Of a DNA stretch of 10,615 nucleotides, positions 1,799 through 10,251 are shown piece after piece (position 1 is the stretch's first letter; every line of letters starts with the position of its first letter). The translations under genes and the position numbers were made by a program. This stretch comes from Chlamydiota bacterium (GTDB lineage Bacteria; Chlamydiota; Chlamydiia; Chlamydiales; SM23-39), in NCBI GenBank assembly GCA_038534095.1, contig JBCAXK010000050.1, positions 1-10,615 of the forward strand. The letters run 5' to 3'. The notes beneath the pieces are model-generated. The model worked only from the letters and a program-made list of their open reading frames with translations, was not told the DNA's origin and ran no database searches.

Positions 1799-2944
1799 CT
1801 ATTCTCCGATAGGCGCCTTTGGAGAAAATTTACTACGAACGTTGTTTAACATTTTTTGTACAATTGCTGGGTCTACAGACTTTTCTCTAACTCCTTCCTC
1901 CAATGTTCCGGAGATGATCAACTCATCGCCTCGCGGATAGATTCCTACCCAAGTAGAAGTTTCATCAGAAACATTTTCGTAGGTCATATAGTCGATATTA
2001 TGGACGTTTTTAAAGAAGAGTATATGACCTCGTATTGGAAGAAACTCTTGATCGTTGAATAGTTTTTCTGCGCCAAAACTTGTGCAATTCACAACAATGG
2101 GTTCCTCTAAATCCAAGATATCTTCGATATTTTCAATATGACGTTCCACTATTGATGCGTTGAATAATTTGACTTTTGTAAAAAGATCCTTGATAAACTG
2201 TTTCCCATCAATGCTTAAAATTCTTTTGACGCTTCCTGTTTTTCGTAATCCATTATCAAATTGCACGACAATTTTCGGCTCTTGGTCCTTAAACTTTGGC
2301 TTGAAATACTTTAGTTGCTTGTAATCTGCATTTTTGAAAATGTAATCATCAATAAAGCCTACTCCCAAAAATTCTGGTTCCTCTGCAGTTGCGAGTTGTA
2401 AGTACCTTTTTCTCGATACTTCTAACATATACTTCAATGCTTGTTTTTTTTCTGAAGACTGGATGCTATTCAAGGATGGAGGACTCCATATGCCAATAGC
2501 AACATCTGAGGTAAGATTCGGAGAAAATTCCTTAGAGTAAATCGTGACATCATAGCCTAGTTTCAATAATTCATAAGCAGTTGATAAACCAATCACTCCA
2601 GCGCCAAGCACTGCGATCCTGTTTGCGTGCAATAAGGAAGGGTCTCTCATAAAAGCGCTAGATAGAAGATCTATTACTCTCTGCGCTCCTCCCCAACACA
2701 AAGTTACTCCTGATCCGCTATAGCCATAATTGTGAACAATCAGCTTATCACCGTAGTATTCTTCCTCTACGCGAGGACCCGATTTTCTATAAGGGCGAAT
2801 TCCCACCCTTGCTCCTAAAAAATTTTCATCACTCAAATCAGGAGTCTTAAGATGGATTTCTTTGGGGGAAGTAGTTTGTGGCTCACTCGCCTGCAAGCAT
2901 ATTGCAAACGAACAAATCATGGTAATTATTGCGCAGTAAAACAT
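1799..2944 (-). CDS. FAD-dependent oxidoreductase, D-amino-acid oxidase (DAO) family, circularly permuted, with predicted signal peptide
   Basis: Contains VGIRPYR (47-53), VHNYGYSGSGVTLCWG (70-85), Rossmann IAVLGAGVIG (110-119), TSDVA, IVVNCT, PIRGH and IYPRGDELIISGT. Hydrophobic N-terminus ending LQA. Confidence 0.9.
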   Translation of the reverse strand: MFYCAIITMICSFAICLQASEPQTTSPKEIHLKTPDLSDENFLGARVGIRPYRKSGPRVEEEYYGDKLIVHNYGYSGSGVTLCWGGAQRVIDLLSSAFMRDPSLLHANRIAVLGAGVIGLSTAYELLKLGYDVTIYSKEFSPNLTSDVAIGIWSPPSLNSIQSSEKKQALKYMLEVSRKRYLQLATAEEPEFLGVGFIDDYIFKNADYKQLKYFKPKFKDQEPKIVVQFDNGLRKTGSVKRILSIDGKQFIKDLFTKVKLFNASIVERHIENIEDILDLEEPIVVNCTSFGAEKLFNDQEFLPIRGHILFFKNVHNIDYMTYENVSDETSTWVGIYPRGDELIISGTLEEGVREKSVDPAIVQKMLNNVRSKFSPKAPIGE

Positions 2945-5073: not shown

Positions 5074-5644
5074 TTGTAGAGAATCATTTTCCTTTGTTGC
5101 AAGATGTTTCCGCTTTATTACAAAAGACCTTTTGCATCAACCGACTAGACCTGATGGGCATCGGAACACTTAGCCAGTGTTTTTAGCAATCATCTCCAAC
5201 GTTTTTGGTAACGAAATATTTGTGGCAACCGCCATTTCTAAAAAGATTGTTCTAGTAGCATGTTTTCCAAAAATCTTCTGGAAATTCCTTTGAGGGAAAA
5301 GCGCATTTTGGAAGCTAGATCGTTTCTTTATTCGTTTTGTATCGAGAAATATGGTAAAATCACGCTTGTCTTACGTGAAATCTTTCTATGAACACAAGGT
5401 ATTTTCCCCAGGTCTTGTTACCCTTATTTTCTTTCCATAAGCAGCCCTTTTTCAAAGAGCGTTTCCCAGAATCTACGGAGCCTATTTTTTATGGAAAGTG
5501 AAGGTTTCTTCGTATATGCGGGTGGCGAGCGCAATTCCTTGCGTAGATTTTTGTCTTTTCTAGAGGCCTTTCTTAATGAGTCTGGCTGTTTTTTCAAGAA
5601 AACCAGTCTTTCAAGACGCTCTTGAGTGGAGGAATCGTTTAGGC

Positions 5645-6946
5645 ATGTACCCTATGGAACAGACACAACATCGCAAACATCTTTCTCCTCTGTATATCGC
5701 TTTTATTGCCGCGCTAGGGTCTGGGTTTGAATACTACGATTTTGTAATTTACGGAATGATGGTGAATTACTTATCAGAGGTTTTTTTCCCCACATCTACA
5801 GAATTTTTGCGTGTGGCGCAGGCCTTTTCCATTTTTTCTATAGGCTACCTTGTAAGGCCGATTGGTGGGGCGTTTTTTGGAGTGATTTCCGACTGTTATG
5901 GGAGAAAACAATCCTTCATAACCATTATGGCGTTGATGGCTTTTTCTACGCTGTTCATCGGATGCCTTCCCACGTATCAGATGGCAGGTTCTTTCGCTCC
6001 CTTGATGCTTGTGGCTCTTCGCTTGCTACAAGGAATTTCATTTGGGGCAGAGCTTCCAAGCGCAGCCACGATCGTAGTAGAATCTTCCCATCAAAGAGTT
6101 TTAGGCAGAGCGTGCGGCCTTGTTTTATCAGGAACGTCCCTTGGAGCGCTGATGGCAACCTTTGTGCTGGCAGCGCTTTCTTCTTTTTTTACTGATCAAG
6201 AGATCATCGCTTACGCTTGGCGCCTTCCGTTTATTTTTGGTGGAGTTCTTGCTTGGGTTGCGCTTTACAGCCGAAAACATCTGTATGAAACCGAAGAATT
6301 TTTGCAACAGGCCTGCAAAACTCGAGAATTTTTACAACAGCCTAAGTGCTTCCTACGCATCCTCAAAGAACATTCCACCTCTCTACTTATTGCTTTAGGA
6401 CTCACTTTTCTGTTAGCAACCTTGATCATCATCCATGTCTATTCGCCTGTATTTCTTTCTAAATATTTTGGTTACTCGTCTCCCATGATCTACCGATCGA
6501 TGTCGATTGGGATGGCATTTTCCTTTCTCTTTATGATTCTATTTGGGCATGTAGCTGATCATGTTGATAAAAAACAGCTCTTGTTTTACGGGATGGTGGG
6601 TATTTTTTTCTCAGCTTCTTTCATGAATGGTCTCTTAAAAATGGGAGATCCTACTTTTTTGACGCTGTTTTTTATTACGTATCAGTTTTGGATCGCTGTA
6701 TTTTTTGTGAGCTATCTTCCGATTGTATCGAGGCTATTTCCAACAAAGGTGCGCTGCAGCGCGCTGGCGCTTACCTACAACGCAGCTTTTACGATTGCAA
6801 GCACGATCCCTACGATTGGAACCGTCTTTTTTTCTGATAGCGCCTCGCCAGCCTTTCTGCTCTATTTTTTAGGGATCGCTTTGGGAATAGGAGCTTTCTC
6901 TCTCTACACTTTGCAAAGACTTTACGCGGATCCTTATGCCTATTGA
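5645..6946 (+). CDS. MFS transporter, metabolite:H+ symporter (MHS, ProP-like) family
   Basis: Motifs FEYYDFVIY, RPIGGAFFGVISDCYGRK, LRLLQGISFGAELP and WRLPFIFGG, with about 12 hydrophobic segments. Start moved from 5576 to ATG 5645 (5654 also possible) because GGAGGA lies at 5628-5633. Substrate cannot be assigned. Confidence 0.93.
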   Translation: MYPMEQTQHRKHLSPLYIAFIAALGSGFEYYDFVIYGMMVNYLSEVFFPTSTEFLRVAQAFSIFSIGYLVRPIGGAFFGVISDCYGRKQSFITIMALMAFSTLFIGCLPTYQMAGSFAPLMLVALRLLQGISFGAELPSAATIVVESSHQRVLGRACGLVLSGTSLGALMATFVLAALSSFFTDQEIIAYAWRLPFIFGGVLAWVALYSRKHLYETEEFLQQACKTREFLQQPKCFLRILKEHSTSLLIALGLTFLLATLIIIHVYSPVFLSKYFGYSSPMIYRSMSIGMAFSFLFMILFGHVADHVDKKQLLFYGMVGIFFSASFMNGLLKMGDPTFLTLFFITYQFWIAVFFVSYLPIVSRLFPTKVRCSALALTYNAAFTIASTIPTIGTVFFSDSASPAFLLYFLGIALGIGAFSLYTLQRLYADPYAY

Positions 6947-6956
6947 GGGGTGAAGA

Positions 6957-8666
6957 TCACCAGTCTATTTCTACCCCTTCTTCTGTGCCACTTTCGAAAG
7001 AGCTTTGGAGGATCTCGCTAGCATACTTCTGGGTAAGGTTTGTGTCTTCATGGGCAAGGAGCACTGTGGGGTATTTCTTAAAAAAATCGAGGGAATAGGC
7101 GCTTCCAAACAAAGTGACAATCGTTTTGTGGGCATACTTTTCTAAATGCTGAATCCAATTTTCGTAGGAGGGGATGATTCCATGGACGTGAAAATTCCGT
7201 AGCTGTTTTGTTTGCTCCTTTTCTTCTAGTAAGCGAATGTTTGTGATCCTTCTTGGATCGAGAGGGTGTACGGCAAAAATGATCCATGAATATTTATCTA
7301 GTTTCGTGAGTAGGGTGTCGTGTGTTTTAGGGCTTAAAAGATCGAAGGGGGTCATCTCTAGTCTGGAAGAAAGCTCTTCAAAAAAGGCATTTGAGGCACT
7401 TTCTCCTAATTGCACGTACGCAATAGGCTCCTCTCGATAAAGAAGGTTTGGAGGCATTCCCTTTCTAAAACCAATGACGCTTTTCCAAAGCTTTTTTTGT
7501 AGTTGCTGCGCCTGAGGACTCGCTAGATCACTTGGACCAGGTATATTGAGAGGGCGCTTCTCCTGAATATGAAAGCACTCTTTCATCTTTAGGATTTTGA
7601 AGACTCTAGCGTCTAACGTACTTTTTAGAATAAGACCGCTTTTGATCGCTGCGCTGATGGCTTTGTACGCTTTTAAAAAATCTCTTGGCATAAGAAGCAA
7701 GTCGTTTCCCGCTAAAAAAGCGCGGACGGCAATCTCTTCATCAGAAAAATCGCGGGTTAAACCCTTCATCCGGAGAGCGCCGCTAATCACGAGTCCATCG
7801 AAGCTAAGCTGATTTTTTAAAAGATGTGTAACAATGGAGGGGGATAAGCTTGCAGGCAAAGACGGATCTAGTTCTAAAGAGGGGACAAGGACATGTTCTG
7901 TTTGGATCGATAAGAGGCCTGAAGCAATGGCTTGAACAAACGGATAAAGCTCCACCTCTCCCAATCTTTCTTGACTATGCGCAGCTAGAGGTAGATGCAA
8001 ATGGGGATCTTGATCAATGTCTCCAAGTCCTGGAAAATGCTTCGCTGAAGCGATGATGCCACCCTCTTGTAGTCCCCGAATCATTGCGATCCCTTGCTTT
8101 GCGACCTTTTGGGGGCAGCTTCCAAAAGAGCGCACATTGATCACAGGGTTGTCTAGATGTCTATTTACATCTAAAACGGGGCTGAAATTCATGTGCACCC
8201 CAACCAGCTTTGCCTGCCGAGCAATTTCTTTACCCATTTGATGGATGAGGTGTGTATCCTCAAGAAAGCCTAAAGCGCTATTTTTTGGGAAAGACATGCC
8301 ATCTTCTAAGCGCATAGAAAGACCCCACTCTAAATCCTGAGCAATCAAAAGAGAATACTTGCTCAGGCTTTGGTAATGGTTGATTAGCCTAGCCTGTTTT
8401 TGACTAGAACTTGGCCCGACAAAAGCAATCCCCCCAACATGGTAATCTTGAATATACCGCTCGATTTCTACAAACAGATTAGGGTTTCCCGTTTCCTTTG
8501 CGCAAAAGTCTTCATCAACGTAGCCTGCAATCAAAAAGATTTGTCCAATTTTTTCCTCAAGAGACATCGTCTCTAATGTTGTCTCTGCCCATCTTGAGGG
8601 GTGTTCGGCAAAAGTGGAGTCAAGAGAGCAGAAAATAAGAAGAAGGAATAAGGCGCTTTTTAGCAT
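6957..8666 (-). CDS. Exported glycoside hydrolase family 3, NagZ-type beta-N-acetylhexosaminidase homologue; catalytic nucleophile apparently replaced by Gly
   Basis: Signal peptide (...DSTFA|EH). Motifs MSLEEKIGQ, QDLEWGLSMRL, SPVLDVN, NPVINVRSFG, KHFPGLGDIDQDPH and AGNDLLLMP. It has FDGLVISGALRM in place of F.GL(I/V)(T/S)DAL.M. Confidence 0.93.
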   Translation of the reverse strand: MLKSALFLLLIFCSLDSTFAEHPSRWAETTLETMSLEEKIGQIFLIAGYVDEDFCAKETGNPNLFVEIERYIQDYHVGGIAFVGPSSSQKQARLINHYQSLSKYSLLIAQDLEWGLSMRLEDGMSFPKNSALGFLEDTHLIHQMGKEIARQAKLVGVHMNFSPVLDVNRHLDNPVINVRSFGSCPQKVAKQGIAMIRGLQEGGIIASAKHFPGLGDIDQDPHLHLPLAAHSQERLGEVELYPFVQAIASGLLSIQTEHVLVPSLELDPSLPASLSPSIVTHLLKNQLSFDGLVISGALRMKGLTRDFSDEEIAVRAFLAGNDLLLMPRDFLKAYKAISAAIKSGLILKSTLDARVFKILKMKECFHIQEKRPLNIPGPSDLASPQAQQLQKKLWKSVIGFRKGMPPNLLYREEPIAYVQLGESASNAFFEELSSRLEMTPFDLLSPKTHDTLLTKLDKYSWIIFAVHPLDPRRITNIRLLEEKEQTKQLRNFHVHGIIPSYENWIQHLEKYAHKTIVTLFGSAYSLDFFKKYPTVLLAHEDTNLTQKYASEILQSSFESGTEEGVEIDW

Positions 8667-9204: not shown

Positions 9205-10251
9205 ATGAGTTTTTGTAACAGCATAAGAAAGTATTTCAAAGAGCCAGATTATCCATTGGTAGGTCCGTACATTCAGGAACCCAAATTCTTAATTACAAAA
9301 TGTTTTTTTACAAAAGTGGAAGAAACTGGAGCCAAGGCTTTACAGACATCTTCTGCAACTAGCTTACCCAAATGGGGCCGGGTCACTTGGATTCGCAATG
9401 GTTTGTTGCTGATTCCGGCTTTAGGCAATCTTGTTGTAAAAATCATCGATTTAATCTTGGGTTGCTTCTTCACTTCTTTGAAAGCAGACCCAACACAAAT
9501 CGTACCCATAAGCCCTGCATCAGAGCGCTCAAAAGCGGAATCCAAAACACAAAGCGTACCGATAAAGCCTCCTTCAGACTACCCAATAAAAAAGGTCAAA
9601 GATTTAATTATTCAAGCATTAAGTAATGATCAAATGCAGGTGTTAGACGATCTTTTAGAGATTTATGGAGACAAGCAGCTACCGAACGAACCCGAGGGAT
9701 GGTCGCTCATTGATTTTACTCTGAATGAAGCAGCATTGAGCGGAAAAATATCTCCAGTCGATCACCTGCTAAAAATCCATGGGCAAGAGCAATGGCCACA
9801 ACAACCGGCAGGATGCACGCGTGCTCAATACACTTTTAAAAAAGCTGCTGGTTATGGGCAAATACCCTTAGTTGACCACCTGATAACAATCTATGGGAAA
9901 ACACCATGGCCAGAAAAATCGTCAAGAGGGACTATGATTGATTATGCTATGGATGAAGCGGTACTTAGCGACCAAATAGCTTTAGTTGATCACCTTCTAA
10001 ACATTTACGGGGACGATGATCTACCGAACGAAGCCGAGGGGTGGAAGCGCCGTCATTACACTATTTGCGTAGCAACAGTTTACGAAAAAAGGGATTTGCT
10101 CGATCACCTGTTAAAAACCTATGGGGGCGAACCTTGCCCAGATAAAGCGATTGGAGAAACCTTGGTTGATTTTGCTTATGCTCATGCAAATAACAGCGGG
10201 CACACCGAATTGGCTGAGCATATAACCAATATGCATGGTTCACGCAGCTAA
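9205..10251 (+). CDS. Putative secreted effector with N-terminal hydrophobic motif and six ankyrin-like 38-aa repeats
   Basis: SD GGGAGG at 9193-9198 after a very AT-rich tract (about 9100-9190). IRNGLLLIPALGNLVVKIIDL at aa 63-83, a Pro/Ser/Lys linker, and repeats at aa 132-348. Confidence 0.85.
   Translation: MSFCNSIRKYFKEPDYPLVGPYIQEPKFLITKCFFTKVEETGAKALQTSSATSLPKWGRVTWIRNGLLLIPALGNLVVKIIDLILGCFFTSLKADPTQIVPISPASERSKAESKTQSVPIKPPSDYPIKKVKDLIIQALSNDQMQVLDDLLEIYGDKQLPNEPEGWSLIDFTLNEAALSGKISPVDHLLKIHGQEQWPQQPAGCTRAQYTFKKAAGYGQIPLVDHLITIYGKTPWPEKSSRGTMIDYAMDEAVLSDQIALVDHLLNIYGDDDLPNEAEGWKRRHYTICVATVYEKRDLLDHLLKTYGGEPCPDKAIGETLVDFAYAHANNSGHTELAEHITNMHGSRS
9598..10248 (+). repeat. Intragenic tandem repeat, 114-nt/38-aa unit, five full copies plus one partial
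   Basis: Units start at aa 132, 170, 208, 246, 284 and 322. Consensus approximately D[FY]xxxxAxxxGQxxLVDHLLxIYGxxxxPxxxxGxTxx. Confidence 0.9.

Follow-up and report, generated by a model that had tools for sequence, protein, structure and literature searches.

NagZ enzymes of glycoside hydrolase family 3 (GH3) are textbook retaining glycosidases with an aspartate nucleophile; acting in the pathway of AmpC induction, they serve as drug targets. Titles of Protein Data Bank (PDB) entries describe the D318N mutant of Bacillus subtilis NagZ in complex with N-acetylglucosamine-N-acetylmuramic acid (GlcNAc-MurNAc). Around the pocket of RmNag lie Asp80, Arg149, Lys179, His192, Met229, Asp268 and Met297; D268A and H192A abolish activity, and the second domain is described as remote from the active site (PMC4680927). 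Ala129 and Ile130 support the N-acyl group in the NagZ of S. typhimurium (PMC3920638). Here we describe a gene on contig JBCAXK010000050.1 of a Chlamydiota bacterium (assembly GCA_038534095.1), the whole 10,615-nucleotide stretch of which we call the window. It encodes a GH3 protein resembling NagZ and its B. subtilis representative YbbD, in which glycine takes the place of the nucleophile.

The gene is a single long open reading frame (ORF; Table 1) of 569 amino acids. The protein matches the Pfam profile PF00933 over residues 36-360, which cover profile positions 2-315 of 316; the score is 241.2 bits, the cut-off being 27. This was the only match in the Pfam scan, the C-terminal GH3_C profile PF01915 giving none. 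The NCBIfam equivalog NF003740 (beta-N-acetylhexosaminidase) scores 127.2 bits, which is under its curated cut-off of 207 and counts as weak evidence only; we take this model to represent the single-domain NagZ type.

On the reverse strand the codons leading to the critical position are GTG (V, 7790-7788), ATT (I, 7787-7785), AGC (S295, 7784-7782) and GGC (G296, 7781-7779), in the context V-I-S-G-A-L-R-M, and the translation around codon 296 is ...FDGLVISGALRMKG.... In phmmer alignments to solved NagZ chains the counterpart of G296 in B. subtilis YbbD/NagZ is D318. Query residues K209-M300 align with 221-322 of 3bmx_A, where the chain segment ...VTDALNM ends at 322; D220/H222 correspond to D232/H234, and K209/H210 to K221/H222. 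The identification of D318 as the catalytic residue agrees with the PDB titles of the D318N complexes. The window protein thus lacks the Asp that NagZ enzymes carry in (S/T)D(A/D/G)(L/M)xM after strand β7. It does have the Asp-His dyad of KHFPGxGxxxxDxH, with Pro for Ser in the middle of the dyad, and the residues of the -1 subsite, i.e. the Asp of QD.EWG, the Arg of RSFG and the Lys-His pair.

The substitution is not peculiar to this sequence. Among the 120 proteins listed in a homologue search, ranks 1-88 including the query all have S-G-A-(L/M)-(R/N)-M, and ranks 89-120 all have Asp. We refer to the first group as the variant clade, and to proteins with the Asp as canonical. The 87 other clade proteins are 45-57% identical to the query. 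In a HMMER search of 1.84 billion representatives the clade collapses to two 50%-identity representatives with 616 and 457 bits, and the next match has 369 bits. None of the 177 non-clade homologues from both searches lacks the Asp, and a search of the ESM Atlas with the window protein gave generic GH3 clusters only. Few clade members have a named source; apart from Parachlamydiaceae, Criblamydia sequanensis and Chlamydiales there are two labels of metagenome-assembled genomes (Anaerolineae and Verrucomicrobia). A cultured carrier is C. sequanensis CRIB-18 (WP_053332008.1, CDR34893.1), for the protein of which UniRef gives the name 'beta-N-acetylhexosaminidase' and NCBI 'glycoside hydrolase family 3 protein'.

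We compared residues in one profile alignment of 88 variant and 198 canonical proteins, the latter comprising 177 database proteins and 21 chlamydial loci after removal of duplicates. Position 296 is Gly in 88/88 of the variants and Asp in 198/198 of the canonical set, a contrast that goes far beyond chance. The original prediction that the glycine occupies the true nucleophile position was correct, as were all its other statements about the sequence. It had also noted that the motif M-x-A-H has become Q-T-E-H and that DSH has become DPH. Both changes are present, and S-G-A occurs together with Q-T-(E/D)-H in every member of the clade, as the proposed check of co-occurrence over homologues had asked. 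Position 257 is Glu in 72 and Asp in 16 of the 88 variants, while 196 of the 198 canonical proteins have Ala (142), Gly (51) or Ser (3) and none is acidic. Ser221 has been replaced by Pro in 87 of the 88 (Ser in 194/198 canonical proteins).

Further members of this package had not been recognized before. An Arg sits three residues past the lost Asp, at position 299, in 87/88 variants and in none of the 198 canonical proteins, which have Asn or other residues. Met255 (191/198) has become Gln (88/88) and Thr295 (178/198) Ser (88/88), while in the dyad loop His214 (194/198) is changed to Leu and Thr217 (173/198) to Ile, each in 84 of the 88. Glu and Asp have interchanged at position 257 at least five times inside the clade. 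Covariation of E/D257 with L/F112 inside the clade was considered and rejected, as only three independent pairs on starred branches (six on all) were available and a sign test gave no significance.

Against these changes stands a conserved framework. As had been predicted, neither the sugar-binding residues nor the Asp-His dyad have been lost (Table 1); K209, H210, D220 and H222 are each present in 88/88 variants and conserved in the canonical set also, and the D220/H222 loop is at least as well conserved in the variant clade as in the canonical enzymes. The predicted intact frame was likewise borne out, and the predicted signal peptide has some support. The query has a hydrophobic N-terminal leader, and of the 68 clade proteins whose N-terminus is complete, 59 have a hydrophobic 11-mer before the first conserved motif, although the measure (Kyte-Doolittle mean of at least 2.0 over the 11-mer) is a crude hydropathy criterion and not a signal-peptide predictor. 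The clade also has a C-terminal signature of its own. P468, D470, R472, R478 and F492 are at least 95% conserved in the variants, and at the same sites the commonest residue of the canonical proteins reaches just 2-26% of 199 rows. Since the second domain of RmNag is far from the active site, we treat this motif as a separate feature.

Could Gly296 result from faulty sequencing or assembly, or from a new lesion in one genome, as had originally been raised? GGC is one base from the Asp codon GAC, and the sequence comes from a metagenome-assembled genome in 87 contigs. Yet Gly is found in all 88 relatives, from many samples, and the changes at 214, 217, 221, 255, 257, 295 and 299 that are fixed along with it speak against a single lesion. 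All four Gly codons (GGC, GGA, GGG and GGT) are in use at position 296 among eight genomes of at least six GTDB families, showing that Gly has persisted while its codon changed repeatedly. Over 7424-8666 the Logan contigs of run X1 are letter-identical to the window, with a word depth of ~19; this run is probably the source sample, so that it provides a different assembler and not an independent sample. The chance of an artefact is therefore negligible, and we regard that reading as refuted. Gly296 is a real, old feature of the whole clade.

As a side observation, the X1 assembly splits at 7424-7453 into two contigs that share 30 bases, and the window is confirmed on either side. One of these contigs continues behind 7453 into a 13-base loose end, which may be sequencing adapter.

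The age of the feature is also evident from the phylogeny. We calculated a quick tree with IQ-TREE (LG+G4, no mixture) from 86 rows, comprising 30 variants (the query, seven genome loci and every fourth of the 87 database members, i.e. 22), all 22 canonical chlamydial loci and 34 other canonical proteins (every third of those of up to 700 amino acids). The variants are monophyletic with an SH-aLRT (Shimodaira-Hasegawa-like approximate likelihood ratio test) value of 100, and their stem, 0.47 changes per site in length, is the longest inner branch listed. This long, fully supported branch is a further argument against a recent mutation. The window protein is the earliest branch within the group. 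The variants join the main canonical chlamydial group weakly, with SH-aLRT 89 and a branch length of 0.0027. Identity within the variant clade is 44-93% (median 59), and to canonical proteins 27-48% (median 37).

In a sample of the phylum in which 300 genomes were scored (one further genome being unscored), 209 have a GH3 match at E ≤1e-10 and 91 have none; in family f4, with genomes of 1.0-1.2 Mb, matches were found in 0/29. Residues were read in the best 30 loci, the remaining matches scoring far below the range of the clade. Eight of the 30 are variants and 22 canonical. The variant carriers are the window genome and G147, G098, G117, G229, G119, G037 and G228, distributed over families f1, f3, f6, f9, f17 and f24. 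In six of the eight, including the window's own genome, the variant is the sole PF00933 match. The second GH3 of G037 is a one-domain canonical NagZ-like copy with the Asp (L032, G037:C17:741521-742528), and that of G228 is of another type, 802 amino acids long and with no match to the NagZ dyad-loop pattern (L040, G228:C11:5748-6467). As it is usually the sole GH3 of its genome, the variant appears to replace the canonical enzyme rather than to join it.

Two canonical chlamydial loci share part of these changes. In L031 (G173:C29:4277-8452, from the window's own GTDB family) and L013 (G235:C21:20782-25437) the loop reads DPH, together with GLGD or GYGS, and T/P-D-A-L-N-M and M-x-A-H are kept. 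The combination of a DPH loop with the Asp means that the loop changes are separable from loss of the nucleophile. These loci may be intermediates, or independent loop variants.

An AlphaFold2 (AF2) model of the window protein, made with a 46-sequence alignment, has a mean pLDDT (predicted local distance difference test) of 93.2 and a pTM (predicted template modeling score) of 0.90. It comprises a (β/α)8 barrel followed by a C-terminal α/β domain, i.e. the two-domain architecture of YbbD-like GH3 proteins, and full-length Foldseek alignments to 3sqm, 3bmx, 4gyj, 6k5j and 5vqd extend over 549-607 columns. The active sites of TIM barrels are located at the C-terminal ends of the barrel strands. 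By DSSP strand β6 of the model is 253-256 and β7 is 292-294, so that residues 257 and 296 lie one and two positions past the strand ends. Alignment offsets between query K209-M300 and RmNag chain residues 179-272 put Met229 of RmNag at query 257-259, and therefore the segment that has gained a carboxylate lines the pocket. An equivalence of Met229 with Q255 was considered and rejected on the same offsets. D290 was likewise rejected as a substitute nucleophile near 296, being at a position that is variable in the clade consensus. The Ala129 and Ile130 of the S. typhimurium enzyme would correspond, by motif reading and not by alignment, to the P-V-I-N-V-R segment of the query, in which I176 is invariant in the 46-sequence alignment.

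Classical double displacement through the β7 Asp is excluded for the variant subfamily by its sequences. We favor the reading that this exported two-domain GH3 protein may still cleave GlcNAc by non-classical chemistry, with a rough probability of 45%. Inactivation needs only the one change at 296, and not the four further ones near it, and this suggests a coordinated rebuild, involving at least eight fixed positions around the site, rather than simple loss. The strict and old fixation of Gly296, the carboxylate present at 257 in every variant and the variant's usual place as sole GH3 also speak for an enzyme. The dyad is kept in 88/88 variants, whereas the non-catalytic GH3-like protein Ngs1 has lost the dyad His, and on this account an enzyme is preferred. 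We infer both the identity of the substrate and the existence of any activity at all. The protein would bind terminal β-GlcNAc, most plausibly in periplasmic peptidoglycan fragments or at glycan ends. The window genome (1.6 Mb in 87 contigs, 96.6% complete) holds genes for Amidase_3 and SpoIID and one resembling MurG (E 1.6e-49, which does not reach the curated cut-off), and so wall fragments terminated by GlcNAc should exist. NagA was not found in this 96.6%-complete genome. Its presence was examined as a possible discriminator between variant and canonical carriers and discarded, as there was no signal (19/301 in the phylum and 2/8 carrier genomes).

If the protein is active, cleavage would proceed without a glycosyl-enzyme intermediate on β7, and the leaving group would be protonated by His222/Asp220. 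Residues 255, 257 and 299 probably lie on the α face of the -1 site beside 296. Our first candidate for the nucleophile is the 2-acetamido group of the substrate, which might be held by E/D257 while Gly296 provides room under C1; such an oxazoline route is known from GH18, GH20 and GH84. The second is a water or phosphate that would be held by E/D257 and R299 in the space freed by Gly, giving a single displacement with inversion, and the third is the carboxylate of E/D257 itself. A switch of mechanism within GH3 in this specific sense, whether by an oxazoline via E/D257 or by inverting attack of water or phosphate via E/D257-R299, has a fair chance, but is less likely than not. GH3 phosphorylases show that NagZ-type sites admit phosphate, and in GH130 those enzymes that keep just the proton donor together with residues that bind phosphate are phosphorylases (PMC8950772). 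In the absence of the nucleophile, phosphorolysis by the window protein would have to be inverting; only retaining GH3 phosphorylases are named in that review.

A number of observations weigh against continued catalysis. The main alternative is a pseudoenzyme, an exported non-catalytic binder of GlcNAc, muropeptides or glycan ends that acts as a sensor, a scaffold, a sequestering factor or a regulator of wall turnover. In that case Gly296 would abolish catalysis, and Q255, E/D257 and R299 would fill the site with a polar network or salt bridge that tunes binding. Natural glycosidase homologues without a catalytic residue are often binding proteins, such as Ngs1 in GH3. The chi-lectins and Klotho are further non-catalytic binding homologues. 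The nucleophile is absent from all 88 proteins while all the sugar-binding residues are kept, and nucleophile mutants of NagZ-type enzymes are inactive yet bind substrate; RmNag D268A is inactive (PMC4680927), and the activity of B. subtilis D318N is low enough for GlcNAc-MurNAc to be trapped (PDB titles). Five or more switches between Glu and Asp at 257 would rarely be tolerated by a catalytic carboxylate, but would be by a salt-bridge partner of R299. The new acid and the new, invariant Arg may thus simply pair, filling the hole left by the Asp. The nearness of 257 and 299 to C1 is moreover putative, and the route via phosphate, an anion, would be unusual for an exported protein. Replacement of Ser221 by Pro is expected to stiffen the catalytic loop; following Bacik 2012, the dyad loop is said to be mobile during catalysis. 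Lastly, the pattern of a sole GH3 in six of eight carriers comes from related genomes, and GH3 seems dispensable in the phylum, given the 91 of 300 genomes with no match and its absence from the 29 of family f4. Ngs1 provides a documented precedent for a NagZ-like GH3 that is a pure GlcNAc sensor (PMC5063960).

We consider this binder a tentative but substantial alternative to the active enzyme. It does not readily explain why, when one change is sufficient for inactivation, seven more should have been fixed, four of them near the lost nucleophile and three within the loop, nor why a dyad that a binder does not obviously need, and that Ngs1 has lost, is present in 88/88. Moreover, for all the synonymous changes in its codon, Gly296 has in no case given way to Ala, Ser or Asn. 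That no other GH3 was found in six of the eight carriers suggests substitution of an enzyme rather than an added binding function.

A third possibility starts from engineered glycosynthases, which are retaining glycosidases in which the nucleophile is changed to Gly, Ala or Ser and the acid/base is kept. The variant has the same residue pattern, and differs in being natural and clade-wide and in having a new acid and a new Arg. It might be a transferase that uses an α-activated GlcNAc donor (a sugar 1-phosphate or a polyprenyl-diphosphate-linked sugar), with R299 as a putative anion site on the α face and H222/D220 as base on an acceptor, to make β-GlcNAc linkages rather than to cleave them. 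The strictness of the Gly, the new and invariant Arg299 and the retained dyad would fit. However, the acidic E/D257 beside the putative phosphate site would be unfavorable, and the eight carrier loci share no glycosyltransferase-type or lipid-carrier neighbor. To our knowledge no such activated α donor is known in the chlamydial periplasm. The proposal is purely inferential, and we think it very improbable.

The active enzyme thus remains our preferred reading, and either main outcome would be of some consequence. The variant subfamily is a natural experiment in which the active site of a glycosidase has either been re-wired or become that of a lectin. Should it be active, there is a new mechanism in one of the largest glycoside hydrolase families, and the annotation 'beta-N-acetylhexosaminidase' given by UniRef to the Criblamydia member should be read with caution. 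The phosphate version, if true, would make this the first inverting phosphorylase in GH3, with α-GlcNAc-1-phosphate as product. If it is inactive, it would be a conserved periplasmic binder of GlcNAc or muropeptides in bacteria with unusual peptidoglycan biology, and may bear on wall turnover or on concealing wall fragments from the host. As C. sequanensis is cultured, the question is accessible to ordinary biochemistry. Full-text searches, from which subscription journals are largely excluded, found no literature on chlamydial GH3 proteins or on natural nucleophile-less NagZ.

Coordinates of the gene, of features within it and of neighboring genes in the window are collected in Table 1. No RNA data set was listed as containing the gene. 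The adjacent MFS gene was considered as a candidate AmpG and rejected; its product is instead a ProP-like metabolite/H+ symporter. We compared neighborhoods in the eight carrier loci using ORFs of at least 90 amino acids up to ~6 kb on each side, with all-against-all blastp at 1e-8, and found no conserved neighbor beyond the GH3 gene itself. The GNAT and pentapeptide-repeat genes, which are upstream of the MFS gene, are not conserved beside GH3 in the other seven loci. The DAO-family protein has an N-terminal extension of ~100 amino acids without a family match. The product of the 348-codon ORF may resemble the effectors of intracellular bacteria.

Table 1. Positions in the window of the GH3 gene, its domains and active-site motifs, and the surrounding genes
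Feature	Position	Strand	Basis
Whole gene, 569-aa GH3 NagZ/YbbD-like protein (P0001), stop codon included	6957..8666	-	ORF list, Pfam, AF2 model, Foldseek
N-terminal hydrophobic leader, probable Sec signal peptide, ~residues 1-20, MLKSALFLLLIFCSLDSTFA	8607..8666	-	sequence and hydropathy
GH3 N-terminal (β/α)8 catalytic-type domain, residues 36-360	7587..8561 (G000:C50:7587-8561)	-	Pfam PF00933
D111 (QDLEWG), retained sugar-binding Asp	8334..8336	-	86/88 variant (2 N-terminally truncated), 198/198 canonical
R179 (VRSFG), retained sugar-binding Arg	8130..8132	-	88/88 variant, 198/198 canonical
K209-H210 and loop G213-L214-G215-D216-I217-x-x-D220-P221-H222, Asp-His dyad kept	8001..8042	-	profile alignment
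Q255-T256-E257-H258 (codons CAA ACA GAA CAT, 7904-7893), end of strand β6, canonical M-x-A/G-H	7893..7904	-	profile alignment
S295-G296-A297-L298-R299-M300 after strand β7, canonical T-D-A-L-N-M; Gly codon 7779-7781	7767..7784	-	profile alignment
C-terminal α/β domain, ~residues 398-560	6987..7475	-	secondary structure and structural alignment to two-domain GH3
Clade-specific C-terminal motif P468-x-D470-P-R472-R...R478 (DPRR...IRLL)	7233..7265	-	conservation in alignment
F492, part of clade-specific C-terminal conservation	7191..7193	-	conservation in alignment
Convergent ProP-like major facilitator superfamily (MFS) symporter beside the GH3 gene	5576-6946		family match
GNAT (Acetyltransf_3) acetyltransferase, 182 aa	4488-5036	-	family match
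Pentapeptide-repeat protein, 190 aa	3821-4393	+	family match
DAO-family FAD oxidoreductase, Rossmann motif from residue 105-110	1799-2944	-	family match
348-aa ORF, weak Ank_3 match (E 3.4e-4, below cut-off), no NCBIfam match	9205-10251	+	profile search

How does the variant compare with described systems? The Candida albicans protein Ngs1 has an N-terminal domain in which the GlcNAc-binding residues are kept and one catalytic member is lost, and it binds GlcNAc without hydrolase activity (PMC5063960). In that respect it is similar to the variant. However, Ngs1 has lost the dyad His (changed to Leu), whereas the variant clade keeps H222 in 88/88 and has lost the nucleophile, and in this sense it is not Ngs1-like. 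Ngs1 is also eukaryotic, nuclear and fused to a GNAT domain, while the window protein is bacterial and exported; this comparison is based on the published description of Ngs1 (PMC5063960).

The GH3 phosphorylases Nag3 (Cellulomonas fimi) and BglP/BglX (5VQD/5VQE) rely on a His/Asp dyad for acid/base catalysis and have the same fold as the window protein, 5VQD giving the best query-length-normalized TM-score to the model (0.77, rmsd 3.9). They are retaining, keep the Asp nucleophile and yield a β-sugar-1-phosphate (PMC8950772), whereas the window protein has no nucleophile. In the inverting phosphorylases of GH130 a proton donor is combined with basic residues that bind phosphate at the α face, and a second catalytic carboxylate is missing (PMC8950772). 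Set beside this pattern, the variant keeps the proton donor, lacks the nucleophile and has the new R299, but it also has the new acid E/D257.

Within the phylum the canonical Chlamydiota GH3 proteins (L010-L031) are of the two-domain length class and are tree neighbors of the variant clade, with weak support, but all 22 inspected carry the Asp in (T/S/P/I)D together with M-x-(A/G)-H. The same two-domain fold is found in B. subtilis NagZ/YbbD (3BMX, 3NVD, 4GYJ/K), the GH3 protein of Paenibacillus sp. FPU-7 (6K5J) and that of Synechococcus (3SQL/3SQM). The best PDB matches are 6k5j, 3sql and B. subtilis YbbD/NagZ 3bmx/4gyj, with E values of 2e-57 to 3e-56, and Foldseek comparison with two-domain NagZ structures gives a probability of 1.00 and TM-scores of 0.68-0.79. 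They share the KHFPG...D-x-H dyad loop and the D/R/K/H sugar-binding residues with the window protein; the PDB title of YbbD calls it a lipoprotein, and the window protein has an N-terminal leader. The differences are Gly for the nucleophile, QT(E/D)H for MxAH, SGALRM for TDALNM, GLGDI for GHGDT and DPH for DSH, and a C-terminal domain without a Pfam match that has its own DPRR...IRLL motif. The window protein is therefore GH3 by profile and by fold, and is like YbbD except in the defining nucleophile, and we refrain from classing it among the NagZ enzymes.

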